DNA of 64,000 bases from Elusimicrobia bacterium CG_4_9_14_3_um_filter_62_55 (GCA_002790095.1 PFUL01000189.1:5206-69205); one strand, 5' to 3'; positions 4,821 through 50,115 are shown, counted from the stretch's first letter. Translations and numbers: made by a program. Notes: generated by a model not told the origin, from the letters alone.

Positions 4821-5624
4821 TCACTTCGGGAGCGTGTAGGCGGAAAGCTCGGTGTTTGGATTTTCGACCCCGGGAGCCCCGACCGTCGTTTTGACGCGGC
4901 CGACCCTGGGGCAGTAATAGTCGAACACCCAAGAGCCGTATCCCGCGGTCCGGGATTTCACCTTCAAACAGCCCTCGAAACGCCCGGCTTTCACTTCGAC
5001 CGTCAGAGAATCCTCCACGATTTCATATCGGACGCCCTTTCCGCCTTCGGTCGCTTCCCAAGACCGGCCCTTGCGAAACGGATAGCGAAGAATCGGGGAA
5101 CGCCCGGTTTCCCGTTCTTCCCAAATTCCCCAATCCTCCTTTACGACTTCCCGCCGGTAGTCCCGAAAGCGCTCCTCTCCGGCGAAAAAGGCGCCGGCGA
5201 TGACGCCGCTCAATCCTCCGCTGGATTCGCGGACCGCCAGTTCGAGGCGCATGTTCTCACCGCCCGACGCGGAGTCCACGAAGACCCACTTCGCGCCGGC
5301 CGGAAGGGGGAAGAAATCCGGACATCCCACGAGAGCGTTTCGCGCCTGTTCGGCCCATGGACCTCCGGCGCGGGCGGACCGCTCGTAAAGAGGCACGGCG
5401 TTCCCGCAGTCTTGACGTTCGCGGTCGTAGAGACGCGCCGCCCGAAAGGCCGCTTCACCCTCGCCCGGCGCGTCGGGCCAACGGTCGAGATACTTTTCGT
5501 AGGTTTCGATCGCCGCGGCCGCCTGTCCCTCGAGTTCGAACGTACGACCGCGTTCGAGAGCGGCCCCGGGATCCGAGCAGGCGGCCGCCGCCAGCATCAT
5601 CGCAAAGAGCAGGCGCCTTCTCAC
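4821..5624 (-). CDS. Lipoprotein, TPR-like N-terminal region
   Basis: Signal peptide with lipobox LAAAAC; helical-repeat-like N-terminus. 4-nt overlap (ATGA) with the upstream gene. Confidence 0.5.
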   Translation of the reverse strand: MRRRLLFAMMLAAAACSDPGAALERGRTFELEGQAAAAIETYEKYLDRWPDAPGEGEAAFRAARLYDRERQDCGNAVPLYERSARAGGPWAEQARNALVGCPDFFPLPAGAKWVFVDSASGGENMRLELAVRESSGGLSGVIAGAFFAGEERFRDYRREVVKEDWGIWEERETGRSPILRYPFRKGRSWEATEGGKGVRYEIVEDSLTVEVKAGRFEGCLKVKSRTAGYGSWVFDYYCPRVGRVKTTVGAPGVENPNTELSAYTLPK

Positions 5625-6373
5625 TGAATCAGCACCGTGCCGTCCGGGAGAAACAACGGCACGCCCGAGACGACGATCTTCACCTGGCCCGGCGCCATCT
5701 GCGGAACCTTCTCATACAGATACGGACCCCGGAAGTAGCGAAGGAGCGCCGGCTCGAAGTCCGGGATAAACCGCTCCTCCATCGGACTGGAATAAACCCG
5801 GATCCCCGGCGGCTCGCCTTTCCTCTCTTCGGCTTCCGCGACGCGGGCCGTCAAACCGGAAAACTCCATCATCCCGGCGAGCGCGTCGACCGCTTTGACC
5901 AGTTCCGGTTCTCCTCTTCGGGCGACGACCATAAACGAAGCGCCGAACCCGCGATGCTGAAGAACCGCCAATTGCAGAGAACGGGTCGCCTCGAATTTAA
6001 GTCTCGCGTTCGGAGCGATAAACGACTTGCGCGCGCCCAAGTGCTTCGCGAGTTGAACATCGGCCACGAGCTTGGATAAGCGCTTCGCTCCGTCGACATT
6101 CGGGTATTGGCGGTCGGCGGCGAGTTCGAGAGCTTCGACTTTCTTGCGGTACTGCGAGAACCGAATCCTGAAATCCTCGAGTTGTTTGCGCATTTCGGTG
6201 CGGGACTCGATGACGCGTTCGTTCCGGGCGCGTTGATTGTCCCATGCCGCCCATCCAACGGCGGCGGCGACCGTCAGCGCTCCGATCACGAAGCGGGCCG
6301 AGGCCGGCCATGCCGAGAGTTCGATTCTCAGAGGCTCCAACGGCCCGGGCCATGGCTTCGTCTTTCGCGCCAT
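5621..6373 (-). CDS. Membrane-anchored hypothetical protein
   Basis: One N-terminal TM segment (FVIGALTVAAAVGWAAW) followed by a charged helical region. Translationally coupled to the lipoprotein gene. Confidence 0.45.
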   Translation of the reverse strand: MARKTKPWPGPLEPLRIELSAWPASARFVIGALTVAAAVGWAAWDNQRARNERVIESRTEMRKQLEDFRIRFSQYRKKVEALELAADRQYPNVDGAKRLSKLVADVQLAKHLGARKSFIAPNARLKFEATRSLQLAVLQHRGFGASFMVVARRGEPELVKAVDALAGMMEFSGLTARVAEAEERKGEPPGIRVYSSPMEERFIPDFEPALLRYFRGPYLYEKVPQMAPGQVKIVVSGVPLFLPDGTVLIQ

Positions 6374-7085: not shown

Positions 7086-7770
7086 TGTGCTCCTGGGGGG
7101 GCGGAGCCCCGCCGTGCCGGGCTTCATGGGGGCTATGAGGACGCCCGGCCTGGGGGGGCGGAGCCCCGCCGTGCCGGGCTTCATGGGGGCTATGAGGACG
7201 CCCGGCCTGGGGGGGCGGAGCCCCGCCGTTCTCCGACGGCCCGGAAAGGGATCGGCGCATCTTCAACCGCGCGCGCTTCAAGCGCCGCTTCGCTTCGAGC
7301 ATCTGCTCGCGCGCGCTATCGGCAGCCTTCCGGTCTGAGCGCGCCTCGGCGCCGCGCAGCGCCCTACGCGCCCGAGCGACGGCGTTAAGCTCTCGGCGGA
7401 TCGCCTGCTTCGCGTCGGCGTATCCGGCGGGAACCTCGCCTCGGGCGAGGGCGCTCTTCAAACGCTCCCGTGCCCGGCGCTGCTCTTCTTTTGCCCGGAC
7501 GAGACGGTCTCGCGCGTCGGAAAGAGCCGGCTCCTCGCCGAAGACCTCCGCCTTCTTGAGCGCGCGGCGCACACGACGCACCCGGTTGCGCGCGTCGCGA
7601 ACGGCCTGTTCCAGGCGGATCGCGGGAGAAAGTCGTGTCTCGCGAGAGGCGTCTTCGCCGCGGTTCCCGGTCGTAGCGGTCGAAACCGCGACCTCGGCCG
7701 GAGCGGCCGCATTCGTTCCGGCCGCGAACGCGGTCCCCGCGGCCATCACAAGGATCAAGAACGGCCTCAC
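7060..7770 (-). CDS. Secreted Arg-rich helical periplasmic protein with C-terminal His/Pro-rich tandem repeats (possible Spy/CpxP/ZraP-like stress protein)
   Basis: The GTG at 7770 overlaps the MucB-like gene's TGA (GTGA). Signal peptide VRPFLILVMAAGTAFAAG. Long Arg/Ala/Glu coiled-coil region. The C-terminus has 2.4 copies of the 19-aa unit GGAPPPQAGRPHSPHEARH, encoded by a 57-bp in-frame tandem repeat. Confidence 0.5.
   Translation of the reverse strand: MRPFLILVMAAGTAFAAGTNAAAPAEVAVSTATTGNRGEDASRETRLSPAIRLEQAVRDARNRVRRVRRALKKAEVFGEEPALSDARDRLVRAKEEQRRARERLKSALARGEVPAGYADAKQAIRRELNAVARARRALRGAEARSDRKAADSAREQMLEAKRRLKRARLKMRRSLSGPSENGGAPPPQAGRPHSPHEARHGGAPPPQAGRPHSPHEARHGGAPPPQEHNGKRRVPR
7092..7230. 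repeat. 57-bp tandem direct repeat, 2.4 copies, in-frame within the 7060-7770 CDS
   Basis: The unit cctgggggggcggagccccgccgtgccgggcttcatgggggctatgaggacgcccgg is identical at 7092-7148 and 7149-7205, with a partial copy to about 7230. Confidence 0.85.
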
Positions 7771-13114: not shown

Positions 13115-14632
13115 TCAAGCAGTCTCTTGAGTCCGCGCGACCGCAGTCCCGGCGAGACACAGGAGAAACAACGCCGCTGCGAGAAAATACGCCGCGTTCC
13201 CGGTTTTCGCGTACAACGACCTTCCGGAAGCAGGGGCAAGCTCCACCACAAACGCTCCTCTCTCCCCGAAGGAAAGCCGCTTGCGAATTTTTCCGGAGCG
13301 GTCGATGCCGACGCTGATGCCCGAAGTCGCCGCGCGGAACACGGGGGTTCGGGTTTCCACCGCGCGCAAAACAGCGATACGAAGGTTCTGCTCCGGCATC
13401 TGATTATTGTCCGCCCAAGAATCGCTTGTTTGCAGCACGAACGCGTCCGGAGCGGGCTCGGAAGCGGCCAACCGCCGCGTGAGCCACGGCTTCACCGCGT
13501 CGTAGCAAATCAAGGCACCCAACCGCGTCCCGTTCGGTAGGGTCAGCAGGCGGCCGTGTCCGCGGTGTATCGGATCCATCGCCGGCACGATGTCCTTCAG
13601 GACGGGAAACCAATTCGCGCCCGGCATCCACTCGGAGAACGGCGTCGGATTCAGCTTTTCAGAATGTCCGCCATATCCACCGTCGACCCTGACCAGAACG
13701 GCCGCGTGATGGCGACGAACGATCGCGGTCGTTCCCCGGTACCCGACGATTTCCTTCGTTCGGGTTCCCAGGATGATCGGGACTCGGAACGGGAACTCCA
13801 CCCGCATTGCCGCCGGGAAATCGGTTTCCCACGGCGACCGCTCCTTGCCGTAGGTCCAGACTCGTTCGTAGGTGTTTTGGGGGAAAAGAATCAATTCCGG
13901 GAATTCCGCGAGTACCGAATCCGCCAACTGACGGTACACCGCCAAATTTTGGCCGTAGCGTTCGGGGATCCAGCGCTCCGCATCGGGCACCGAGCCCTGA
14001 AGGACGGCTACGCGCAGGCGCATCCGGCTCTGCGCGTCTTCCACGGCGATCCGCCTCACGCTCCATATCCCGAATACCTCGTTCGCCCCAAGAAAAACAA
14101 GCGCGATCAGCAGAGGTCGGAATCGGCGATAGGAAACGGCATAGAAGATCCCCGCATTTAAACCGTGTACCAGCCAAGAGACGCCGCCCATCCCCAACAG
14201 CGATAAGCTCTGAATCGCCGGGAGATGATCGCTGAGCGCGACCGCCAAATACGAAGGATAAATCTGAGGCCAAAACGCCTCGGCGGCAACTCCGGCGGGC
14301 ACAATGAGCCACGGGAGCCCCGTCCACGCGGCCGTTCCGGCGGCCAAGCCCCAGGGAAGTCCCCAAAACAAAACCAGCGGCGCAGAAGCGAGCACCGCCG
14401 CCGGAGTGCTTATCTTCATCAGCAAAGCCGCAGGGGCGTAAGTCCAATACGCTCCGACCCCCCAATACACCGCTCCAAAGGTCCAGCCGAGCAGGAATGC
14501 CGCGCGCGGCGTTCGCGTCGCCGCCGCATGATAGAGGGGGACAAACGAAATCAAAATCAAAACGCCCCACGCCCCGCCCCAAAACCCCGCGCCGCCGGCG
14601 GCCGCCCCGACGAGCGTCCCGATCACGCGAAC
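13115..14632 (-). CDS. lnt: Apolipoprotein N-acyltransferase
   Basis: N-terminal polytopic region plus C-terminal CN-hydrolase domain (VAVLQGSVP..., ALICYDA...). The start is approximate (GTG 14632); the six-frame ORF to 14689 overlaps the upstream gene. Confidence 0.75.
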   Translation of the reverse strand, partial: VRVIGTLVGAAAGGAGFWGGAWGVLILISFVPLYHAAATRTPRAAFLLGWTFGAVYWGVGAYWTYAPAALLMKISTPAAVLASAPLVLFWGLPWGLAAGTAAWTGLPWLIVPAGVAAEAFWPQIYPSYLAVALSDHLPAIQSLSLLGMGGVSWLVHGLNAGIFYAVSYRRFRPLLIALVFLGANEVFGIWSVRRIAVEDAQSRMRLRVAVLQGSVPDAERWIPERYGQNLAVYRQLADSVLAEFPELILFPQNTYERVWTYGKERSPWETDFPAAMRVEFPFRVPIILGTRTKEIVGYRGTTAIVRRHHAAVLVRVDGGYGGHSEKLNPTPFSEWMPGANWFPVLKDIVPAMDPIHRGHGRLLTLPNGTRLGALICYDAVKPWLTRRLAASEPAPDAFVLQTSDSWADNNQMPEQNLRIAVLRAVETRTPVFRAATSGISVGIDRSGKIRKRLSFGERGAFVVELAPASGRSLYAKTGNAAYFLAAALFLLCLAGTAVARTQETA

Positions 14633-25598: not shown

Positions 25599-27107
25599 GT
25601 GCACACCTCCAACGAACGCCTTTCCTGGATCGCGCCGACGGCGGTCTTCCTTTATTTTTTGGCACTTTTCGCGTTCGTCCATACCCGTCCCGGAGGACAA
25701 GTAGAACGCGACGGATACTTCCACGCACGCGCATCGCAAACCTTGCTCTCACGGGGTCTCTCCCGCAAATTCCCGTGGACTCAGGCGAGCGTGTGGAAAG
25801 ACTCCTTCCACGATAAGGAGTTTCTCTATCATGTCTGGCTCGCCCCGTTCTCGCGGGGGGACGCCCCGATTCGAGGGGCCGCCGCCGCGAGCGGCGTGCT
25901 CGCCGCCGCGGTGTTTGCGGCCTTTTTCATTTTCTTAAGAGCCAACCGCGTGCCGTGGCCGCTGTTGGGCACCGCTTTGCTCGCATCCATCGGCGGTCCG
26001 TTCCTATTAAGACTTTCGTTTGTGCGGGCGCACGTGCTCGCGGTGCTTCTGTTCGTCGTCGCCCTGCACTATCTCGTCCGAAGACGGAAACGAGAACTGG
26101 CCGTCGTCGGCTTCGCGCTCGCCTGGTCCTATTCCTTTCCGCTCGTCCTGCCGGCGTTCGCGGGACTCTATTGCCTTGGACGCTTTTTGACGGGCAAAGA
26201 CGCCGAGTGGGGCCTTGCCGCAGCGGCGCTCGTCGGAGTCCTGCTCGGCCTGGCGATCCATCCGTACACGCCGCTCACGCTCGGAACGCTCTGGACGCAT
26301 CTCCAGATTCTTTGGATCGCGATCGGCCAAAGAAGCATGGCCGCCGTCGAGGTGGCTCGCGAATTCGCCCCGTACGGAACCCGGGACTTTATTCTCGCCT
26401 ATCCCGGCTTGCTGCTGGCGGGCGCCGGACTCTGCGCCGGAGGGTGGCTTTCGGCGAAAAGGGCCTCCGCCGAAACCCTCGGACTGATCATCGCCGCGGC
26501 CGCGAGCTGTGTGCTGACGCTCGCGTTCTCCCGGGCGATCGAGTACGCCGCGCCCCTGACCGCCGCCGCCGCGCTATTCGCCGCCCGCGACGCGCTCGAC
26601 GAGGAGACCGTCTCGCGCATGCTGGCTTGGTTCAAGAAGGAAAATCGTTGGCCCGGGTTCGTGAAGCCCGGACTCTTCCTTATCCTTTTCGGCCTCCACG
26701 TCCACAGTCTCGCCTATGTCGTGGAAATGTCGGAGGGGAACGATCCTCCCCGATTCGCCGGAGCCGCGAAATGGATGGCCGACAATTTGGAAGAGGGGGA
26801 GACCGTCGCGAATTTATGGTGGGACGATTTCCCCGAGCTCTACTACAGCGCTCCGCGACAGACCTTTTTGGTCGGACTCGATCCGACCTTCATGCTCCGC
26901 TGGGATAAGGAAAAGGCGCTGAAGCTGGAATTGATGCGAACCGGACGCGCGCCCTTGGATCCCGACTGGATCGCCGAAACCTTCGGGGCGCGCGTTTTGG
27001 CTTTGCGCGCGCCGAGCGCGCGCTTCTATCCGCAGCTGCAGCCGTCGGGCTGGCAGCCGGTTTACCTCGACCGCTACGCCGCCGTTTACGCGCTGAAGGG
27101 TCCGTAA
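25599..27107 (+). CDS. Polytopic membrane protein, possibly a GT-C fold glycosyltransferase
   Basis: Ten or more hydrophobic segments with a C-terminal soluble region. No confident family assignment. Confidence 0.45.
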   Translation: MHTSNERLSWIAPTAVFLYFLALFAFVHTRPGGQVERDGYFHARASQTLLSRGLSRKFPWTQASVWKDSFHDKEFLYHVWLAPFSRGDAPIRGAAAASGVLAAAVFAAFFIFLRANRVPWPLLGTALLASIGGPFLLRLSFVRAHVLAVLLFVVALHYLVRRRKRELAVVGFALAWSYSFPLVLPAFAGLYCLGRFLTGKDAEWGLAAAALVGVLLGLAIHPYTPLTLGTLWTHLQILWIAIGQRSMAAVEVAREFAPYGTRDFILAYPGLLLAGAGLCAGGWLSAKRASAETLGLIIAAAASCVLTLAFSRAIEYAAPLTAAAALFAARDALDEETVSRMLAWFKKENRWPGFVKPGLFLILFGLHVHSLAYVVEMSEGNDPPRFAGAAKWMADNLEEGETVANLWWDDFPELYYSAPRQTFLVGLDPTFMLRWDKEKALKLELMRTGRAPLDPDWIAETFGARVLALRAPSARFYPQLQPSGWQPVYLDRYAAVYALKGP

Positions 27108-27114
27108 TGCGAAA

Positions 27115-27146
27115 ATGGGTGTCAGGGCGTCACTTTGTCACTTTTG
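27115..27146. repeat. REP-like 32-mer, copy A (ATGGGTGTCAGGGCGTCACTTTGTCACTTTTG)
   Basis: Exact reverse complement of 32533-32564. Contains three GTCAC-like repeats. Confidence 0.9.
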
Positions 27147-27174
27147 GGAAGTTCAGTTGATAGGCGCTGGATTT

Positions 27175-27203
27175 GAAAAGTGACAAAGTGCCGGCCTGAC
27201 GCC
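27175..27203. repeat. Diverged REP-like copy B, inverted relative to copy A (hairpin-like pair with a 28-nt spacer)
   Basis: gaaaagtgacaaagtgccggcctgacgcc versus copy C caaaagtgacaaagtgacgccctgacacc. Confidence 0.7.
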
Positions 27204-29444
27204 GGATCGGAAACCGATCCTGAGTTGAACGGCGGTGGAACCGGGTTGCCTCAGTTGGTGAATCAAATCAATGTAGGCGAGCGGATTACCGAGACGGACG
27301 CGTTGGGACACTCACAAATTTACGAGACCCTCGGGAAAAGCGGTCTTAGAAGAATTACGAAGGTCACGAATGCCGCCGGGAACTCGCAAGCATTCGAGTA
27401 CGACGCCGACATCAACCTGAAGTCGCAGACGGACGAATTGGGTCGGAAGACGGCCTTCAGCTACGACGACAAAGGGAACGTCACGGCCGTCGTCGACCCC
27501 TTAGGGAATGTCACTCAAATCGAATATGGGACCCTGAGCCAGGTCACGGCGTTTACCGACCCCCGCTGGAATCGGACGACGGTCACGCTTGACGCAAAAG
27601 GCAACGCGGTGGAGGTGCGCGACCCGCTCAACAACGCTGTACAAGCGAGAAATCTGAGCGACGGCAGGGTGGCGGCGGCAAAAGACCCGCTGGGCCGTGA
27701 GACTTCGTTTACCTACGACGGCCGCGGCGAATTGGCGACGGTCACCGACGCGCTCGGGCGCACGGTGACACTGGAGCGGGACGCGCTCTCGCGAGTGAGG
27801 AAGCAAATCGGACCGGAAGGGCAGGTCGCCTCGTTCGAGTACGACAACCAGGGGAACGTCACGAAGGTGATCGACGCGATGATGGGCGTGACGGCGATGA
27901 CCTACATCCCGGGACGGGAGGGGAGGCTTTTGGAAAGGGTCGTCGACGCGCGGCACGAAGGCACGGCGATCGGGACGACCTTCGGCTACGACGAGATAGG
28001 CCGGCCTACCTCGGTCACGAACGCGGTGGGCAAGACCCTGACGGTACAGTACGACCTCAAGAGCCGGCCCACGACGATCACGACGCGGCGCGGCCATTCG
28101 ATTTCGATCACCTACGACGCATTGGACCGGCCCATCAAGATCACGGCGCCCGAGGGCGACACGACCTTCGTTTACGACGCGGTCGGCGATGTGACCCGCA
28201 TGGCCAAGTACGACGGGTCGTCGGTCGATTTGGTCTACGACGCTCTGGACCGCGTGACGCAGGCGACGCAGAAGCTGCCGGGTGGGTTTACGGCGACGCT
28301 TTCCTACACATTCGACGCGAACGGCAACCGTACGAGCATGAGCACGCCGTGGGGGAGCTTCAGCTACACCTACGACGTGCTGGATCGCGTGACTTCCATT
28401 TCAAATCCTTTCGGGCAGATTATCCAATTCCAGTACGACGCCTTGGGGCGCCGGACGCAGATGAGCTACCCCAACGGGACGAAGACGAATTACTCTTACG
28501 ACCCCGTGGGGCAGATAGCGCAAATCGTGCATATGAAGACGGGCGAACAGACGGCCTTCGCGTTTAAGAACTACGACTACGACCCCTCGGGCAACCCGAC
28601 GGCGATCACCGACACGGCAGGGGCGCATACCTTCACCTACGACGATCTCGACCGGCTCGAGACGGCTAACCACCCGCCCGCGGCGGGGCTGCCGCGCAAT
28701 TCAGAAAGCTTTACCCACGATAAGGTGGGCAACCGGCTTTCGGACGCGGTGCGTACGGGCTACGCCTACGACGACGCGAACCGCATCCAGTCTGATTCGG
28801 CGTATACTTATACGAGCGACGACGACGGGAATGTGACTTCGAAGACCGATAGAACGACCGGCGAGAGGACGACCTTCGTTTACGACAGCGGGAACCGGCT
28901 GATACGGGTCGAGGCTTCGACTTATACGATTGCGTCCTATCAGTACGGTCTTACGGGCGACCGTGTTGAGAAGATCGTGGGCGGGGCGACGACGCGCTTT
29001 GTGTATGACGGGCGCCGCGTGTTGGCGATCTTGGACGCCTCTAATAATCTGTTGGCCTTGTTTACGAACGGGCCGGGAACCGATGAGCCGCTGATTATGC
29101 GTCGCGGCGGGAATGACTACTTCTATCACCAGGATGCGCTCGGGAATGTTAAGGCGTTGACCGATAGCCAAGGGCAGATTGTCGAGACGGTGCAGTACCA
29201 GGCGTATGGGCGGGCGGTGGTCAAGGACGCGATGGGGAATATGCATGCGGCCTCGACGGTGGGGAATCCGTTCCTTTTTGCGTCGAGGGAGTTGGATGCG
29301 GAGACGGGGCTGTACTACATGCGGCAACGGTATTACGACGCGGAGATTGGGAGGTTTTACTCGGAGGATCCAGTAATTGCGGTCAAATTTGTACGCGTTC
29401 TCTCTAAACAATCCGGTTCTCTTCACAGACCCCCTTGGTCTTGA
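27180..29444 (+). pseudogene. 5'-truncated Rhs/YD-repeat protein fragment (reading frame opens inside repeat copy B)
   Basis: Many YD repeats (FEYDADINL, FSYDDKGNVTAV, TYDALDR...). An in-frame TGA lies 2 codons upstream of the first possible start. The canonical ...YYDAEIGRFYSEDP segment then runs out of frame. Confidence 0.7.
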
Positions 29445-29934
29445 ACCAATTAATCGGGGAACCAACTTCAGTGGAACATGTGGCTGCGATCCGAATCAAT
29501 TTGATGGAATTGACTTCAATGGGGTTGACATCTATGAAAACGCAAATTTTGCCAAGCTGTTGCCAAAATGGAACCCTGCGACATTCCCGATTTACGCCCA
29601 GTTTTTTAGGGATGGGGGCTTGTTTGATTATGGGGAAGCGTGGTATCCCGGGGTTAAGGACCCTGAACTCGAGCAACACCAGGGGGCCATTAATGCGCAC
29701 CGTTTTGGGAACTTCAATTTCGGAGTCATGATGGCTGCCTCCGGCTTCCCCGAACAAGAGGCCTTATGGATCGCAGGGTTTGTGCGTCAAGTGAAGGGAA
29801 GAAACCCTGAGAGAGGCGAGGGAAGTACTGGTATCCCATTTGGGATCAAAGCCAAGTATCCCTTTGGAAACATCCCGGGGCCCGCTAAGGACATCCAAAG
29901 CGGATACGATTTTTACCAACGGTGTATCCGATGA
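29377..29934 (+). CDS. Rhs core terminus (NLYAFSLNNPVLFTDPLGL) plus C-terminal polymorphic-toxin domain of unassigned family; +1 frame relative to the upstream Rhs ORF
   Basis: The DPxGL Rhs cleavage motif is reached only after a 1-nt frame change near 29370-29380. A toxin domain of about 160 aa follows. Local GC is lower than the flanks. Confidence 0.55.
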   Translation: MRSNLYAFSLNNPVLFTDPLGLEPINRGTNFSGTCGCDPNQFDGIDFNGVDIYENANFAKLLPKWNPATFPIYAQFFRDGGLFDYGEAWYPGVKDPELEQHQGAINAHRFGNFNFGVMMAASGFPEQEALWIAGFVRQVKGRNPERGEGSTGIPFGIKAKYPFGNIPGPAKDIQSGYDFYQRCIR

Positions 29935-30470
29935 AAAAGAGATTGGGTGCTCCAAAATTGACACAGAAACCAATATGGCGAACCCTTTTCTCATTCATTG
30001 GATTCTGCATCTTGATTTCAGCATTTCTAATTATCGGAGCCGAGCAGATTCTTCAGAGAAGAGAACGATGGGGGGAAGTTTATTCTCCCGCCAGAACCTA
30101 CGTCGTGACGATAATTCACGAGTCTCCGCGGATCGGATTCTTAGGATACGGGGGTGATGGATTAAGCTACTTCCATTTGGACAAGAGGCGATGGTACGTT
30201 GACTGGATACCAGGGGGTGCAAGAATTTTCGGTTCGGACGTCCTTGTCTTGTACGGCCACGTTCTTCCATATGGCATTACTTGGCTCGATGAAAATCACC
30301 TTCAAATTCGCTTACGTTATCCCATTGAATATGAGTACGACTACTACGGAACCAAGGTTAAGATCTATAGGAACAAGCGGAGCACATGGGGTCAGGTAAA
30401 AATTGGTTTCGGAGTTTTAGGCGACGATGAGACATCTGATCCGAGGGAAGTTACGATTGATCCCAGCTAA
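29931..30470 (+). CDS. Putative cognate immunity protein (membrane-anchored)
   Basis: ATG overlaps the toxin TGA (ATGA). N-terminal TM segment FSFIGFCILISAFLIIGA. AT-rich. Position immediately after an Rhs C-terminal toxin. Confidence 0.45.
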   Translation: MKKRLGAPKLTQKPIWRTLFSFIGFCILISAFLIIGAEQILQRRERWGEVYSPARTYVVTIIHESPRIGFLGYGGDGLSYFHLDKRRWYVDWIPGGARIFGSDVLVLYGHVLPYGITWLDENHLQIRLRYPIEYEYDYYGTKVKIYRNKRSTWGQVKIGFGVLGDDETSDPREVTIDPS

Positions 30471-30548
30471 TTCAAATCGGGAAGAGGATGATGGTTAAGA
30501 GGTTGATCTTGAAGTAACTTAAGATTGTGAAATCTTGGTGGAGGCCCC

Positions 30549-31322
30549 ATGTCTTACCAAACCCCATCAAGCGCCCGTTCGATCCCGACGATACCCCTCG
30601 TCAATCGAGCGTTTGAAAAAGCCGTAAGCCGTTTATTAATCACCGCCGCCCTCCTAACGCCCCTCCAGGCGCTAGCAGCCCCTTCATTCATATCCCCCAA
30701 AACCTTCCGCACCCGTCAACTCACAAAAACCCCGCTCACCCTCATCGACATCCGCCCCCCCGACGCCTACAAGAAGGAGCACATCCAAGGTGCCCTAAGC
30801 GTCCCCCTGGAAACCCTCCGCACCTGGCAGCCGCCGTCGAACGCCCCCATCGTCGTCTACTGCGTCTGCCCCAAAGACGAAGAAGCCGCCGCCATCCTGA
30901 TAGAACGCGGGTTCACCAACACGACGGTGCTCGAAGGCCGGTTCGCCGCGTGGAAGAACGCCGGCTACCCCGTCGTCCGCTACGGCCGCGGGGTCGGGGG
31001 GAAGGACCCGCCGCTGGAGCGCATCGACGCGAAACGCGCGAAACCCAAGGTCGAGGACGGTTCCTTACTCCCGGTCGACGTACGACCCGAGGCCGAGTAC
31101 AGAATGGGACGCCTGCCGGGCGCGGTGCACGAACCGCTGGAGCGCATCCGTCTCGCCGTACCTGCGTTTCCAGAGGGAAAGACTCTGCTCGTGTACGGGC
31201 GGGTCGGTGCGCGCGCCAGGGAGGCCGCGAAGACGCTGAGACAGGCGGGCTATGCCGTGACCGAGCTCTCCGGCGGAATCGCCGGTTGGGCCGCGAAGAA
31301 GTATCCGATGGAGGTCGAATAA
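30549..31322 (+). CDS. Secreted tandem rhodanese-domain protein (second domain lacks catalytic Cys)
   Basis: Two rhodanese folds: domain 1 has Cys in VVYCVCPKD, domain 2 has VYGRVGARA (Cys to Gly). N-terminal hydrophobic signal-like region. Confidence 0.65.
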   Translation: MSYQTPSSARSIPTIPLVNRAFEKAVSRLLITAALLTPLQALAAPSFISPKTFRTRQLTKTPLTLIDIRPPDAYKKEHIQGALSVPLETLRTWQPPSNAPIVVYCVCPKDEEAAAILIERGFTNTTVLEGRFAAWKNAGYPVVRYGRGVGGKDPPLERIDAKRAKPKVEDGSLLPVDVRPEAEYRMGRLPGAVHEPLERIRLAVPAFPEGKTLLVYGRVGARAREAAKTLRQAGYAVTELSGGIAGWAAKKYPMEVE

Positions 31323-31323
31323 G

Positions 31324-31560
31324 GTGAAGCTCGAACGGCTGGGAGTGGCGCTGGCCCTGGTCGCCGCGTTCCCGGTCGAGCCGGAGGCCCAGCTATCGGG
31401 CCCGTACTGCGCGGAGGTCAAGCTCGAAATCGTCCAGGAGGCGACGCTCGAGCGCGAGGCCTTCGACGCGCGCCTCGTCATCGACAACAACGTCGCCGAC
31501 CAGGCCTTCACCAACCTGCGCGTCAGCATCTTCATGAAGGACGAGCAGGGGGCGTCGGCG
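31324..31560 (+). pseudogene. N-terminal remnant of a secreted-protein gene, apparently truncated at the RAYT insertion
   Basis: The GTG start sits 1 nt after the rhodanese stop. A signal peptide is followed by about 60 aa of plausible sequence. The frame then runs antisense into the RAYT 3' end and becomes Arg/Pro junk. Confidence 0.3.
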
Positions 31561-32485
31561 AATCGCACCCGCCGTCGGCGGCCTGAAAAATCCCGCCTTC
31601 CGCCTCCCCAAGTTCCCGCAACGCCACCTGCCCCATCTTCACAATCGCCGAATGACACCGGTTCAGATAGCGCGCAAGATCGACCGTTCTCTCGCCGTCA
31701 TTAAGCGCCTCCAGCACGAAGCGGCGCCGCACCGACGAAAGAAACCGATTCTTTCCCCGGCCCCGTAGGTCTTTGACACCGACCCCATACCGGCGACTGA
31801 ACCGCAGCGCCCTCTCCTCGAGCGGCTCCCTAACCCGCAACCGCGGCCCGGCCTCGGCGATGACCCGGGCCTGCTTCACTTCGTCCGGTTCGTCCGCCGT
31901 GTCCTCCGCCTTGAAGGGATCGACGACAATTTCCGGATTTTTGATTCCCGCGAGAACGTATCGTCGATACGCGTCCCGAGCCGCAGCCGGAGTTTTACCG
32001 AAGAAACTTAAGCCGAATTTCGGATTGATTCCGGCGATGACGCGCCGTCCCAGATACACGCCGTGGCTCGACCAAGGCCAATCGGCGGGGTCCTCCACAA
32101 GCCCGGCGCGAAGCGGATTCAAATCGTTGTAGCGCAGCAGTTCCATGAAGTAGTCGTCTCCTCCGCAGAGGATCGACTTATAGCGATCCTGAAACAGATG
32201 TCCGCGCCTGCCGTACTTTTTGTTGAACGCCTTCGAGTAGCGGCTCAACAGCACCCGCATGATCCGGGCCATCGAAACTTCGCCCAACCGAAGCAGCAGG
32301 TGAAAGTGGTTGCCCATCAGACACAGCGACGCGCCCTCGAAATTGAAGCGGCCGGCCACCTCGCCGTAAATCTTGAGGAACAGCCACCGGTCGGCGTCAT
32401 CCAAGAAGATCGGCTGACCGTCGTTTCCGCGCGCCATGACGTGGTGGATGGTCCCCGGCGCGTCCCATCTCGGCTTGCGTGCCAT
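31532..32485 (-). CDS. IS200-like / REP-associated tyrosine transposase (HUH Y1) with C-terminal DnaA-like HTH region
   Basis: HuH motif GNHFHLLL with conserved downstream Tyr region. WPWSSHG-like C-terminal portion plus an HTH-like tail. Adjacent REP-like repeat. Confidence 0.8.
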   Translation of the reverse strand: MARKPRWDAPGTIHHVMARGNDGQPIFLDDADRWLFLKIYGEVAGRFNFEGASLCLMGNHFHLLLRLGEVSMARIMRVLLSRYSKAFNKKYGRRGHLFQDRYKSILCGGDDYFMELLRYNDLNPLRAGLVEDPADWPWSSHGVYLGRRVIAGINPKFGLSFFGKTPAAARDAYRRYVLAGIKNPEIVVDPFKAEDTADEPDEVKQARVIAEAGPRLRVREPLEERALRFSRRYGVGVKDLRGRGKNRFLSSVRRRFVLEALNDGERTVDLARYLNRCHSAIVKMGQVALRELGEAEGGIFQAADGGCDSPTPPARPS

Positions 32486-32532
32486 GCCGCTTCGTACGAT
32501 TCAGGATCGGAAAGGTTCCCTCTACAATTTTC

Positions 32533-32564
32533 AAAAGTGACAAAGTGACGCCCTGACACCCATA
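32533..32564. repeat. REP-like 32-mer, copy C (reverse complement of copy A)
   Basis: caaaagtgacaaagtgacgccctgacacccat is the exact reverse complement of 27115-27146. Confidence 0.9.
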
Positions 32565-32720
32565 ACAACAATCTAGGTCTTTTGGGGAAGGGAGGTGTTC
32601 CCTTTGGGCCTATTTTCACTTTTACCCGGTTGGGGTAGTATCTAAACACGGGCACCGCCCCAGCCGAGCGAGGCGAATGGTGGATTCGCAGAGGACGGTC
32701 CCGAATTTGGAGGTGGTTCC

Positions 32721-49938: not shown

Positions 49939-50115
49939 GCTAGGCCGGCCCCCCTTTAACCCCGGTGAAGGCCGGCACAGCGGGGCTTGCGCCCCGCTAG
50001 GCCGGCCCCCTTTTAACCCCGGTGAAGGCCGGCACAGCGGGGCTTGCGCCCCGCTAGGCCGGCCCCCTTTTAACCCCGGTGAAGGCCGGCACAGCGGGGC
50101 TTGCGCCCCGCTAGG
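49939..50115. repeat. 59-bp tandem repeat x3 with internal GC hairpins, between convergent genes
   Basis: The unit ctaggccggcccccttttaaccccggtgaaggccggcacagcggggcttgcgccccg repeats head-to-tail. Each unit contains GCGGGGC-TTGC-GCCCCGC. Confidence 0.85.

Follow-up and report, generated by a model that had tools for sequence, protein, structure and literature searches.

A 5,449-nt unit in the 64,000-nt stretch of Elusimicrobia DNA analysed here (the window) is bounded by two identical inverted repeats, which are the predicted terminal inverted repeats (TIRs) of a TIRtron, that is, of a predicted RAYT-like Y1 HUH transposase together with its cognate TIR. From arm A to arm B, the unit runs through a TIR dimer, a 4.35-kb Rhs-locus fragment and the transposase gene to a closing TIR (Table 1). 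TIRtrons (Di Nocera et al. 2013, PMC3733652; for subclass 2.1, Quentin et al. 2018, PMC6006769) form a class that is known but little studied, and the enclosed dead Rhs fragment is peculiar to this one. We give a probability of about 0.5 to the reading that the transposase and its flanking DNA moved jointly, with the distal TIR serving as a surrogate end.

Table 1 Features of the TIR-bounded unit and its flanks, in window coordinates.
Feature	Position	Strand	Remarks
Left flanking gene, membrane protein	25599..27107	+	502 aa; no Pfam match
Filler TAATGCGAAA, 10 nt	27105..27114	.	Provides the new stop codon of the membrane-protein gene
TIR arm A	27115-27146	+	Left end of unit; outer end ATGGGTGTCAGG points outward
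Spacer and arm C	27147..27203	-	28-nt spacer, then diverged arm C at 27175-27203
rhs fragment	27204..29444	+	Last ~700 residues of a giant Rhs; 5′ end cut at the TIR dimer
Rhs core end and C-terminal toxin domain	29377..29934	+	NLYAF..NNPV..DPLGLEP; out of the rhs-shell frame
Putative immunity gene	29931..30470	+	179 aa; 29% identity to the 171-aa gene after rhs in L038
Two-domain rhodanese	30549..31322	+	Pfam Rhodanese 1.7e-30, two stretches
Stub, first 76-80 codons of a giant secreted-protein gene	31324..31552	+	Homology to L038
Predicted RAYT-like HUH Y1 transposase (TIRYT)	31532..32485	-	Profile and homologue matches; putative diverged C-terminal HTH resembling DnaA domain IV
Leader, arm B to start codon	32486..32531	-	46 nt; family median 36.5 nt
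TIR arm B	32532-32563	-	Right end of unit; identical to arm A at 32/32 nt
Ancestral upstream region of a 287-aa secreted-protein gene	32564..32720	+	Homology to three relatives

Arms A and B are the 32-mer ATGGGTGTCAGGGCGTCACTTTGTCACTTTTG and its exact reverse complement, a match that was reproduced in none of 100 shuffles and ranked first among the inverted repeats of the window. The original prediction had described this perfect 32-bp inverted repeat correctly and had placed its right arm one position off. Only three TIR copies, A, B and C, occur in the 64 kb. Arm C (27175/6–27203) shows 89% complementarity to arm A over the 28 nt compared, across a spacer of 28–30 nt, and the two fold into a predicted DNA hairpin of −27.8 kcal/mol (z = −6.5), in agreement with the diverged, hairpin-forming third copy that had been noticed in inverted orientation beside arm A. 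At the unit's right end, the fold computation gave no local hairpin. A lone arm is without a fold (−0.8 kcal/mol, z = 0.3); it is not palindromic and the TIR sequence contains no GTAG foot, so the earlier reading of the repeat as a REP does not hold. The three GTCAC-like iterons seen in it resolve into an outer motif, GGTGTCAG, conserved in the family, and two inner GTCACTTT direct repeats. The outer motif agrees with GGGGWSAS at seven of eight positions, and relatives have TGGGGTCAGGC or GGGGACGT. Together, A and C are a REPIN-like TIR dimer, which recurs with an equal spacer and a different flank at locus L013 (96.6% identity over 88 nt); an IS3-like ORF adjoins the dimer at that locus.

The gene inside arm B encodes a protein that matches Pfam Y1_Tnp (5e-10) and contains GNHFHLLL, with H60, H62 and Y119 invariant across 33 homologues, which upholds the HUH Y1 transposase foreseen at this place. 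The protein scored 67 bits against NCBIfam REP_Tyr_transpos (NF047646), below the RAYT cutoff of 80, and the family profile matched TnpArep 4ER8 at 8e-5. The same profile, in which the window protein is the first row, matched DnaA domain IV at 1.5e-9, and in BLASTP residues 1–276 of the protein aligned with P0068, whose residues 222–287 are Bac_DnaA_C; for the C-terminal HTH, the protein's own Pfam scan returned nothing at E ≤ 1. The exact protein was found in one context only, the nearest other homologue in the whole database being at most 51% identical, and the transposase is single-copy in the genome of the repeat family.

Homologous Y1 loci with detectable TIRs, 60 in all, show how such a gene is usually arranged. 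In 58 of them the partner TIR lies −60 to +80 nt from the stop codon (median 0), giving a canonical unit of ~1 kb, and the brackets are TIRs of the homologues' own, different in sequence and sharing a GGGG(T/A)C-type outer motif (58/60). Since the TIR lies 46 nt from the start codon in the window and 58 of the 60 homologues are bracketed, the link between TIR and gene is a family property rather than chance. The window locus is the only true outlier: its nearest partner arm is +4386 nt past the stop codon, and near 31532, where a 3′ TIR overlapping the stop codon is expected, no copy was found at ≤7 mismatches. The junction between cargo and transposase, at ~31552, coincides with this expected site, and the last ~6 codons of the transposase gene extend into the stub sequence. 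The architecture had been called unusual on account of its long TIRs, which are in fact typical, both among these loci and in the class definitions of PMC3733652 and PMC6006769, where long terminal inverted repeats define TIRtrons and TIRYTs; the unusual features are the ~4.4-kb gap and the absent 3′ TIR, where foreign DNA begins.

The 4.35-kb cargo reads as one contiguous internal fragment of a single giant Rhs locus, collinear with L038 and L039 in the order giant Rhs, immunity, rhodanese and giant protein, and cut at both ends. Profile matches and the GC profile recovered the 5′-truncated rhs, the low-GC toxin/immunity pair and the tandem rhodanese that had been named beforehand, as pieces of one locus instead of the assortment of genes first supposed. 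The rhs fragment matches RHS_repeat at 1e-79 (with both Pfam and NCBIfam matches), and its residues 32–737 are 59% identical to L038 6694–8802, where a gene of at least 3793 aa ends. A frameshift at ~29370–29380 lies ahead of the DPxGL core end, the corresponding L038 toxin being in frame; the rhs fragment is therefore a pseudogene. The toxin segment gives weak Ntox44 and Rhs_assc_core matches, and the toxin domain is 45% identical to the in-frame toxin of L038. GC content is 47–51% at 29400–30600, across the toxin/immunity pair, against about 60% in the flanks, and the immunity candidate has no Pfam match. The rhodanese, 63% identical to P0237, which in L038/L039 is flanked by the immunity gene and the second giant gene, is a conserved member of the Rhs locus. 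Residues 1–76 of the stub share 72% identity with the N-terminus of the L038 giant protein (at least 3822 aa), and 290 of 290 representative matches cover stub residues ~5–80 only, at the N-termini of proteins of up to 5827 aa. The ORF at 31324–31704, suspected of being a cut gene, is indeed such a stub, its mechanical continuation lying antisense to the transposase gene. The rhs gene is dead, and the immunity and rhodanese genes may still be functional. The window holds no full-length rhs elsewhere, and L038/L039 contain no TIR.

Comparison with sister lineages, from which the unit is absent, identifies it as a predicted insertion. The flanking genes are adjacent in L037 (83% identity) and L035 (75%), with 179 and 169 nt between them. 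The block is repeat-delimited and missing as a unit, which is what the proposed syntenic alignment was meant to look for. Orthologues of the membrane protein in these relatives are 521 aa long (83% and 75% identity), and the window gene is without the last 19 codons. In an alignment of 3′ ends, homology on the left ends at ~27098 (...ctgaagggtccg), and relative to L037 and L035 the locus has lost ~85 ancestral nucleotides, 60 from the gene and 25 from the spacer. On the right, homology to all three relatives restarts at AACAA, the first base beyond arm B. At this same outer junction, L036 has a different ~195-nt element with related TIRs; the L036 site also carries an extra M3 peptidase gene. 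Synteny is intact for >10 kb on either side. Target-site duplications, proposed as a signature at the unit ends, were not found there (flanks ...gcgaaa / aacaac). In ~50 assembly blocks from many samples the unit is present at one location and in one form, and these blocks of the population contain no empty-site allele, second copy or donor Rhs locus; the unit is probably now fixed at a single site and inert.

The TIR family has at least 38 copies at no fewer than 16 loci in the same Elusimicrobia genome, and all nine loci tested were tied to this MAG population by the NCBI names of neighbouring proteins or by cluster membership. On the long contigs sampled, locus density is ~1 per 90 kb. All 12 multi-copy loci begin with a copy on the plus strand and end with one on the minus strand, forming outward-facing inverted pairs; between convergent pairs lie stretches of about 20 nt to 2 kb, some of which hold HicB-like, PhD-YoeB, methyltransferase or DUF6036 genes. 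None of 30 other TIR loci has a Y1 gene nearby. The other copies show neither target-site duplications nor a common target motif, and stuttered partial duplications are seen at many TIR outer ends. Ordinary repeat dispersal had been pictured as a 32-mer scattered over many unlinked sites in a gene order that relatives share without repeat-delimited differences; the scatter was found, and the relatives do show repeat-delimited absence.

A cargo-carrying cassette and a recombination scar are still the right pair of alternatives. Under joint movement, the TIRtron would formerly have interrupted the second giant gene of an Rhs locus, and its proximal 3′ TIR would have been lost or bypassed there. 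The surrogate end would have been arm A of a dimer inserted in rhs 4.4 kb away, the next TIR in the correct orientation, so that transposase, flanking host DNA and distal TIR would have been excised and pasted together. They would have landed beside an AACAA site between the membrane-protein and secreted-protein genes, the ~85-nt deletion arising where the left flank was joined. The reaction could plausibly pass through single-stranded DNA, the two 32-nt arms pairing as a stem for the enzyme to cut at its base; the catalytic core would recognise the outer GGTGTCAG and the HTH domain the inner GTCACTTT repeats. Several observations count against joint movement. The left junction is unclean, with its deletion and 10-nt filler and without a target-site duplication; empty site, second copy and donor are all missing from this population; L038/L039 are TIR-free; and according to published work (PMC3333891, PMC6006769) REPtrons do not move as units.

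We regard it as possible, though doubtful, that the block was assembled or decayed stepwise in place, and that the inverted repeats bracket it without ever having moved it. Either a canonical TIRtron came first and the Rhs fragment was later patched between its gene and the 3′ TIR, or an entire Rhs island once lay here and lost sequence on both sides to deletions beside TIR elements. The deletion and filler at the left junction do attest illegitimate events there, the site has been hit repeatedly (L036, with its other element and extra peptidase gene), the dimer containing arm A is mobile in its own right, and the empty-site relatives are 17–25% diverged at the protein level, so that several successive events are possible. 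However, on both sides the novel DNA stops at a TIR outer end or no more than 10 nt from it, and no Rhs-locus DNA lies beyond. Trimming would also have had to recreate the exact junction used by the independent L036 element, it is hard to see how an internal fragment of another locus would be patched in, and the truncated genes at both cargo ends fit mobile-element insertions into a donor locus.

A recombination scar is unlikely. Here, exchange between TIR copies, homologous or transposase-catalysed, together with a second, illegitimate crossover would have brought in the fragment, one TIR lying at the TIRtron and the other at a dimer within an rhs gene elsewhere. TnpA-REP cleaves REPs and transfers strands between them in vitro (PMC3333891), the dispersed near-identical TIR copies offer ample partners, the identity of arms A and B could reflect recent conversion, and the stuttered duplications suggest repeated cut-and-join events. 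Yet a single TIR × TIR exchange would yield an inversion, deletion or translocation, and synteny is intact on both sides; the model expects a TIR at the cargo/transposase junction, where there is none, and the donor locus was not found. It is very improbable that the TIRs belong to a DDE transposon or MITE family with its transposase elsewhere, the Y1 gene being a passenger or neighbour, or that the bracketing merely coincides with repeat dispersal: perfect 29–32-nt TIRs with short hairpin and gene-carrying derivatives are classic for DDE insertion sequences, MITEs and mobile insertion cassettes, other loci lack a Y1 gene and an IS3-like ORF adjoins one dimer, but the TIR stands at a family-typical distance from a Y1 start in a family of TIR-bracketed homologues, neither unit end has a target-site duplication, and a Pfam scan of the unit revealed no DDE gene.

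Among the known systems closest to the unit are the TIRtrons. As far as PMC3733652 and PMC6006769 describe the class, its members likewise have a RAYT-like Y1 HUH gene in single copy, a long non-palindromic TIR tens of nt before the start codon, and a moderately abundant TIR family of singles, dimers and clusters. They also carry a C-terminal HTH (Bac_DnaA_C, HTH_23 or HTH_28 in TIRYT subclass 2.1, PMC6006769), to which the putative DnaA-domain-IV-like HTH of the window protein may correspond, and an outer GGGGWSAS motif, which GGTGTCAG resembles. In contrast, the window unit has no proximal 3′ TIR, which overlaps the stop codon in 58/60 relatives, has its partner arm 4.39 kb off with 4.35 kb of host DNA inside, and is an insertion relative to sister lineages, in a genome whose other TIR pairs enclose small genes. 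None of these differences is described in the portions of these two papers that bear on the class.

Like REPtrons and RAYT-REPIN systems (Nunvar 2010; Bertels & Rainey 2011, PMC3116915; Ton-Hoang 2012, PMC3333891), the unit combines a single-copy Y1 enzyme with a dispersed cognate repeat, one gene per repeat family, its inverted doublets form long hairpins like those of REPINs, and the gene is flanked by inverted repeats. The REP unit is an imperfect palindrome of 20–40 nt with a GTAG-type 5′ foot; here the repeat is not palindromic and a GTAG/GT[AG]G foot is absent, the protein falls under the NCBIfam RAYT cutoff, and copy number is low. With IS200/IS605 it shares the Y1 HUH core (Pfam Y1_Tnp), presumably single-strand chemistry, and the absence of target duplication. 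Membership was rejected: that family has subterminal hairpins, direct orientation, no TIRs and several copies, whereas the window unit has 32-nt TIRs, no right-end hairpin and a single location. An integron cassette array, which would have attC sites with RYYYAAC/GTTRRRY ends in a single orientation and an intI gene, was considered since toxin-antitoxin genes sit between hairpins. It seems improbable on inspection of the sequences, in which neither GTTRRRY ends nor an integrase were seen, and the copies are inverted pairs scattered among housekeeping genes.

One-ended or surrogate-end mobilisation is a feature of the IS91/ISCR rolling-circle elements and of ISEcp1, IS91/ISCR using HUH chemistry. 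Under joint movement, the window unit would resemble them in that a transposase with one good end reads through a missing or weak second end and takes adjacent host DNA along as far as the next usable one. Their enzymes are Y2 HUH or DDE proteins of unrelated families, and IS91/ISCR ends are not long inverted repeats; the likeness is functional only, and we claim no membership. DDE MITEs and mobile insertion cassettes are TIR-bounded, transposase-free units ranging from hairpin-size to gene-carrying, whereas the TIRs here are without target duplications and the sole linked enzyme is a Y1 HUH protein. The cargo itself resembles orphan rhs-CT/immunity modules in its 5′-truncated core with a DPxGL end, its low-GC toxin and the immunity gene downstream; it differs from them in being frameshifted, in not lying downstream of a full-length rhs, and in extending further, through the rhodanese gene into a stub of the giant gene that follows.

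The 32-bp inverted repeats that delimit the unit (arms A and B in the table) are present and exact, as in the original prediction, although the right arm lies one base to the left of the position first given. They form the longest perfect inverted repeat of the window, and none of 100 shuffles (0/100) matched the 32-mer pair; the observed repeat structure is real and well above chance. A diverged third copy, arm C (27175-27203), is separated from arm A by a spacer of about 30 nt and shows 89% complementarity to it; arms A and C together are predicted to fold into a DNA hairpin (-27.8 kcal/mol, z = -6.5). Taken alone, one arm is not predicted to fold (-0.8 kcal/mol, z = 0.3), nor is there any local hairpin at the right end. 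Searching the window with up to 7 mismatches in 29 yielded no further copies beyond these three, and no Rfam family matched anywhere in the window. Of the three GTCAC iterons once proposed, only the inner two, GTCACTTT, are a direct tandem pair, with a period of 8 nt, whereas the outer unit, GGTGTCAG, is the conserved outer motif of the family.

Features of the TIR-delimited unit (window coordinates)
Feature	Position	Strand	Basis
Arm A, 32-mer ATGGGTGTCAGGGCGTCACTTTGTCACTTTTG	27115-27146	+	sequence match
Rhs repeats ORF	27180-29444	+	domain match
Rhs core end and weak Ntox44-like toxin	29377-29934	+	domain match, weak
179-aa ORF without family match	29931-30470	+	family search
Two-domain rhodanese	30549-31322	+	domain match
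ORF without family match	31324-31704	+	family search
Y1_Tnp protein gene, start 46 nt inside arm B	31532-32485	-	domain match
Arm B, exact reverse complement of ATGGGTGTCAGGGCGTCACTTTGTCACTTTTG	32532-32563	-	sequence match

The structure is a member of the TIRtrons, a class already described but obscure: RAYT-like genes flanked by long TIRs instead of REP hairpins, whose products are termed TIRYTs (Di Nocera et al. 2013, PMC3733652). The authors note a GGGGWSAS motif in many TIRs and describe TIR families as moderately abundant, occurring as singles, dimers and clusters (PMC3733652). According to Quentin et al. (2018, PMC6006769), subclass 2.1 takes 20 of 26 TIRYTs and is defined by a C-terminal HTH resembling Bac_DnaA_C. 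REPtrons, the REP counterpart, are considered not to move by transposition of the whole unit (PMC3333891). A full-text literature search for the terms TIRYT and TIRtron returned only PMC3733652 and PMC6006769. The window's Y1 protein, 317 aa long, has the HUH triad and Y119, and its residues 1-276 align with the protein P0068, residues 222-287 of which are Bac_DnaA_C. A profile of 33 family members matched DnaA domain IV (1.5e-9) and TnpArep 4ER8 (8e-5); both were reached only by this profile, since the single protein gave no DnaA_C match in a Pfam scan and nothing in a PDB search. Against the curated RAYT model it scored 67 bits, with a cutoff of 80.

We then surveyed 83 loci (80 homologue loci from species-representative genomes, two obtained by exact look-up, and the window) for inverted repeats with one arm at most 220 nt upstream of the start codon. 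A significant TIR pair was present in 60 of the 83. Between the end of the upstream arm and the start codon lay a median of 36.5 nt, and the partner TIR began between -60 and +80 nt from the stop codon in 58 of the 60 (median 0). An inverted-repeat-bounded RAYT, originally considered architecturally unusual, is therefore the rule; what is exceptional here is that the 3′ TIR is missing and that 4.35 kb is enclosed. The window was the only surveyed locus without a proximal partner, the nearest lying 4,386 nt past the stop. L123, L107 and L060 had been taken up as cargo-bearing outliers with a distant best partner and were found to be canonical, each having a slightly diverged proximal one. In L083 (+221 nt) the ORF is shortened, and L093, from the same MAG and with the same TIR sequence, is canonical.

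In 20 of 59 surveyed TIRs there was an exact tandem repeat, 6 nt or longer, whose period was 7-11 nt, usually 8-9, and the mean longest tandem run was 4.9 in TIRs versus 3.5 in shuffles. These repeats differ among loci, whereas the outer motif, TGGGGTCAGGC or GGGGACGT across the homologue loci, is common, which suggests a split reading in which the catalytic core would recognize the outer motif and the DnaA-like HTH the inner repeats. The survey thus gives a testable family anatomy: an outer motif, inner tandem 8-9-nt repeats in about one-third of TIRs, and a second TIR over the stop codon. TTGACA lies just inside many TIRs of the homologue loci and might act as the -35 box of the transposase gene. 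In a Chlamydiae MAG (L107:5562-5857), a 28-nt TIR is repeated six times perfectly in tandem, with one further diverged copy, immediately upstream of a TIRYT gene. The cultured Povalibacter uvarum DSM 26723 carries a canonical TIRtron with 13 TIR copies in 12 kb, mostly as intergenic dimers (L123:5694-17497), and is a possible experimental system for TIRYT biology.

The insertion site was compared with syntenic loci of relatives; the flanking membrane protein likewise has its orthologues in Elusimicrobia. In L037 and L035 (membrane protein 83% and 75% identical), 179 and 169 nt separate the membrane gene from a 287-aa secreted-protein gene, which is followed by the Rieske/cytochrome b genes, and synteny with the window extends for more than 10 kb on either side. 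Both keep the flanking genes adjacent, so that the 5.4-kb block is absent as a unit, as the cassette reading of the original prediction had anticipated. At the right junction, homology to all relatives restarts at AACAA, the first bases past arm B. At the left junction, the membrane gene of the window ends 19 codons early, and about 85 nt of ancestral sequence are replaced by TAATGCGAAA and arm A. No target duplication was found at the unit ends. In a third relative, L036 (membrane protein 68% identical), a MITE-like element of ~195 nt (13633-13827) with related TIRs, TATATGGGGGTCTGTCCCCCAGTTGTTTGACTTGTT, abuts the same AACAA as arm B, and an extra M3 peptidase gene lies to the left of this element. 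The AACAA junction is common only to the window and L036, and the position of the L036 element indicates that this junction has been hit twice by elements of the TIR type.

The cargo could be traced to a polymorphic-toxin locus. The closest outside homologue of its rhodanese (P0237, 63% identity) lies in L038, a relative's locus, and in L039. There a giant Rhs gene (at least 3793 aa) is followed by a gene of 171 aa, then by the rhodanese and last by a second giant gene (at least 3822 aa). The window cargo is collinear with this arrangement. Residues 32-737 of the rhs product are 59% identical to the end of the L038 giant Rhs, the toxin is 45% identical to a counterpart that is in frame with Rhs in L038, the 179-aa immunity gene is 29% identical to the 171-aa gene, and residues 1-76 of the ORF following the rhodanese are 72% identical to the N-terminus of the second giant gene. 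In an exhaustive search with this last ORF, all 290 of 290 matches were confined to residues ~5-80, at the N-termini of proteins of up to 5827 aa. Collinearity of all parts with L038 identifies the cargo, from 27204 to about 31552, as one internal fragment of a single Rhs locus. It is doubly truncated, cut on the left at the TIR dimer and on the right at the expected 3′ TIR position over the transposase stop codon (31532).

GC content falls to 47-51% in the toxin/immunity pair, and the rhs frame is broken at about 29370-29380, between ...SEDPV and SNLYAF..NNPV..DPLGLEP; the 754-aa rhs product was called identically in all assemblies inspected. The Rhs toxin is dead, a passenger instead of a working weapon: it is 5′-truncated and frameshifted, and the window contains no full-length rhs. 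When the rhodanese and immunity proteins were looked up exactly, to find other contexts, only the window arrangement came back, and L136, a candidate variant, was rejected as an assembly gap of Ns. In L038 (L038:1-20765), the two giant genes flank the small immunity-like gene and the conserved rhodanese within the Rhs toxin locus.

The window corresponds to JGI contig Ga0210044_10000025, and NCBI assigns its Y1 protein to Elusimicrobia bacterium CG_4_9_14_3_um_filter_62_55. A degenerate 25-mer of the repeat had no match in species-representative genomes and returned 30 stretches from JGI metagenomes, corresponding to 15 distinct loci, or 16 with the window. These 16 loci hold at least 38 copies within 7 mismatches of the 29-nt consensus GGTGTCAGGCCGTCACTTTGTCACTTTTG; copy numbers are lower bounds because the metagenome matches omit the window's own contig. 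We looked up proteins beside the copies at nine loci: seven gave exact matches to NCBI proteins of CG_4_9_14_3_um_filter_62_55 or a sister bin (e.g., CG1_02_63_36), and the other two had proteins in 90%-identity clusters containing proteins of that MAG population. Two more TIR loci share a contig with a tested locus. The repeat is thus dispersed over many loci of this genome. No Y1 gene was found beside the other copies in the 30 stretches, and the next homologue of the window's Y1 protein in a database of 5.8 billion proteins is at most 51% identical; a single enzyme gene therefore goes with a single repeat family.

In all 12 multi-copy loci, the first copy is on the + strand and the last on the - strand, so that the GGTGTCAG ends point outward. 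The smallest pairs enclose 20-30 nt and are hairpin dimers, and another class encloses ~90 nt; L013 repeats the window's A/C dimer with an identical spacer in a different flank. Larger pairs surround genes: a HicB-like gene (by eye) with only a terminator-like hairpin beside it in a 532-nt (0.53 kb) unit (L001:1828-2359), PhD-YoeB in 0.66 kb (L020), a methyltransferase in 0.8 kb (L003), a DUF6036 nucleotidyltransferase in 2.0 kb (L008) and, in the window, 5.45 kb. The flanks of all copies have only a loose (A/T)TG before GGTGTCAG as a common target sequence.

Several smaller observations concern these loci. The ~110-nt right end of the L001 unit (hairpin and TIR) is found again, 88% identical, at another TIR 1.6 kb from it (L001:3900-4010), and TIR pairing in L001 reaches past the 29-nt core (catcgacga / tcgtcgatg). 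Toxin-antitoxin genes (RelE/HTH, PhD-YoeB, BrnT) stand in short runs between TIR hairpin dimers at L020:6184-7807 and L025:9796-10572 and resemble a cassette array, and HicA/HicB-, MazF- and RelE-like ORFs (by eye) lie beside TIR copies in L003, L004 and L012. An integron-like array, which these runs brought to mind, was rejected on inspection, as the pairs are inverted, lack attC ends and occupy scattered loci. Many TIR outer ends follow a stutter of one to three tandem copies, each made of 3-4 nt from the flank plus GGTGTCA(G), such as atagGGTGTCAa atagGGTGTCAa atagGGTGTCAGG (L001:1790-1830, L002:3540-3590, L003:3320-3370, L004:1340-1460, L008:3030-3075, L028:3010-3050); the stutter is absent from the window arms and may mark a cleavage or joining point. 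A ~525-nt segment adjoining the outer side of a lone TIR (L009:2231-2755) has a second copy ~3 kb away (~5406-5930; 95% identity). L023 and L024, which share the inner side of a TIR copy and differ in the outer 55 nt, were unusable as evidence of mobility, one being at a contig end.

The window presents a TIRtron without its own 3′ TIR, in a TIR-delimited unit absent from relatives and alongside a genome-wide cognate TIR family in outward pairs. We propose, at a probability of about 0.5, that the unit moved whole. In an Rhs locus, a TIRtron lacking a functional 3′ TIR would have resided inside the second giant gene; arm A of a dimer in rhs, the next TIR in the correct orientation, would have served as a surrogate end, and the entire unit would have been transferred to the present site. 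An attractive candidate for the intermediate is a single-stranded panhandle whose stem would measure 32 bp; it would unify the hairpin dimers with the gene-carrying units. Such a move would resemble, by analogy only, the one-ended mobilisation of IS91/ISCR or ISEcp1. Counting against it, the unit occupies one site in one form in all assemblies read (the same arrangement in every contig read, from about 50 blocks of the collection), neither a donor locus nor an empty allele was found, and the junction on the left side is not clean. Relatives with the empty site are, moreover, distant enough for stepwise histories, and assembly or decay in place by such steps is a conceivable though doubtful account. 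A scar of TIR-by-TIR recombination, the alternative offered in the original prediction, seems unlikely, and an unseen DDE transposase, or coincidence, is improbable.

RAYT- and TIRYT-type tyrosine transposases are among the most widely distributed transposase-like genes of bacteria and are regarded as domesticated, single-copy and not self-moving, and we know of no TIRYT that has been studied biochemically. The window locus is a natural case of a repeat-delimited insertion that combines a TIRYT gene with its cognate repeat and 4.35 kb of adjacent host DNA and whose right junction is exact to the base, in a genome that also holds small gene cassettes within the same repeats. New relative to known TIRtrons are the cargo-bearing form one TIR short, its insertion status and the small TIR-bounded gene units of the same genome. 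Movement of the entire unit, if it took place, would mean that TIRtrons can transduce host genes, in this case those for polymorphic-toxin immunity and toxin-antitoxin systems. A broader and decidedly tentative reading is that the TIRYT is an active enzyme mobilising any DNA between outward-facing TIRs, with hairpin dimers, 0.5-2 kb gene units (HicB, PhD-YoeB, methyltransferase and nucleotidyltransferase genes) and the 5.4-kb unit (enzyme plus transduced host DNA) as one class. On this reading TIRtrons would be autonomous single-strand transposons that capture cargo and shuffle gene cassettes, and not immobile genes that have been domesticated.

A second, unrelated repeat family was also found in the window, comprising perfect 57-nt tandem units at 7092-7229 (2.4 copies) and 49939-50115 (3.1 copies). 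The units have no Rfam match and contain a GGGGC...GCCCC hairpin core, and the two arrays seem, by eye, to be related in inverted orientation.
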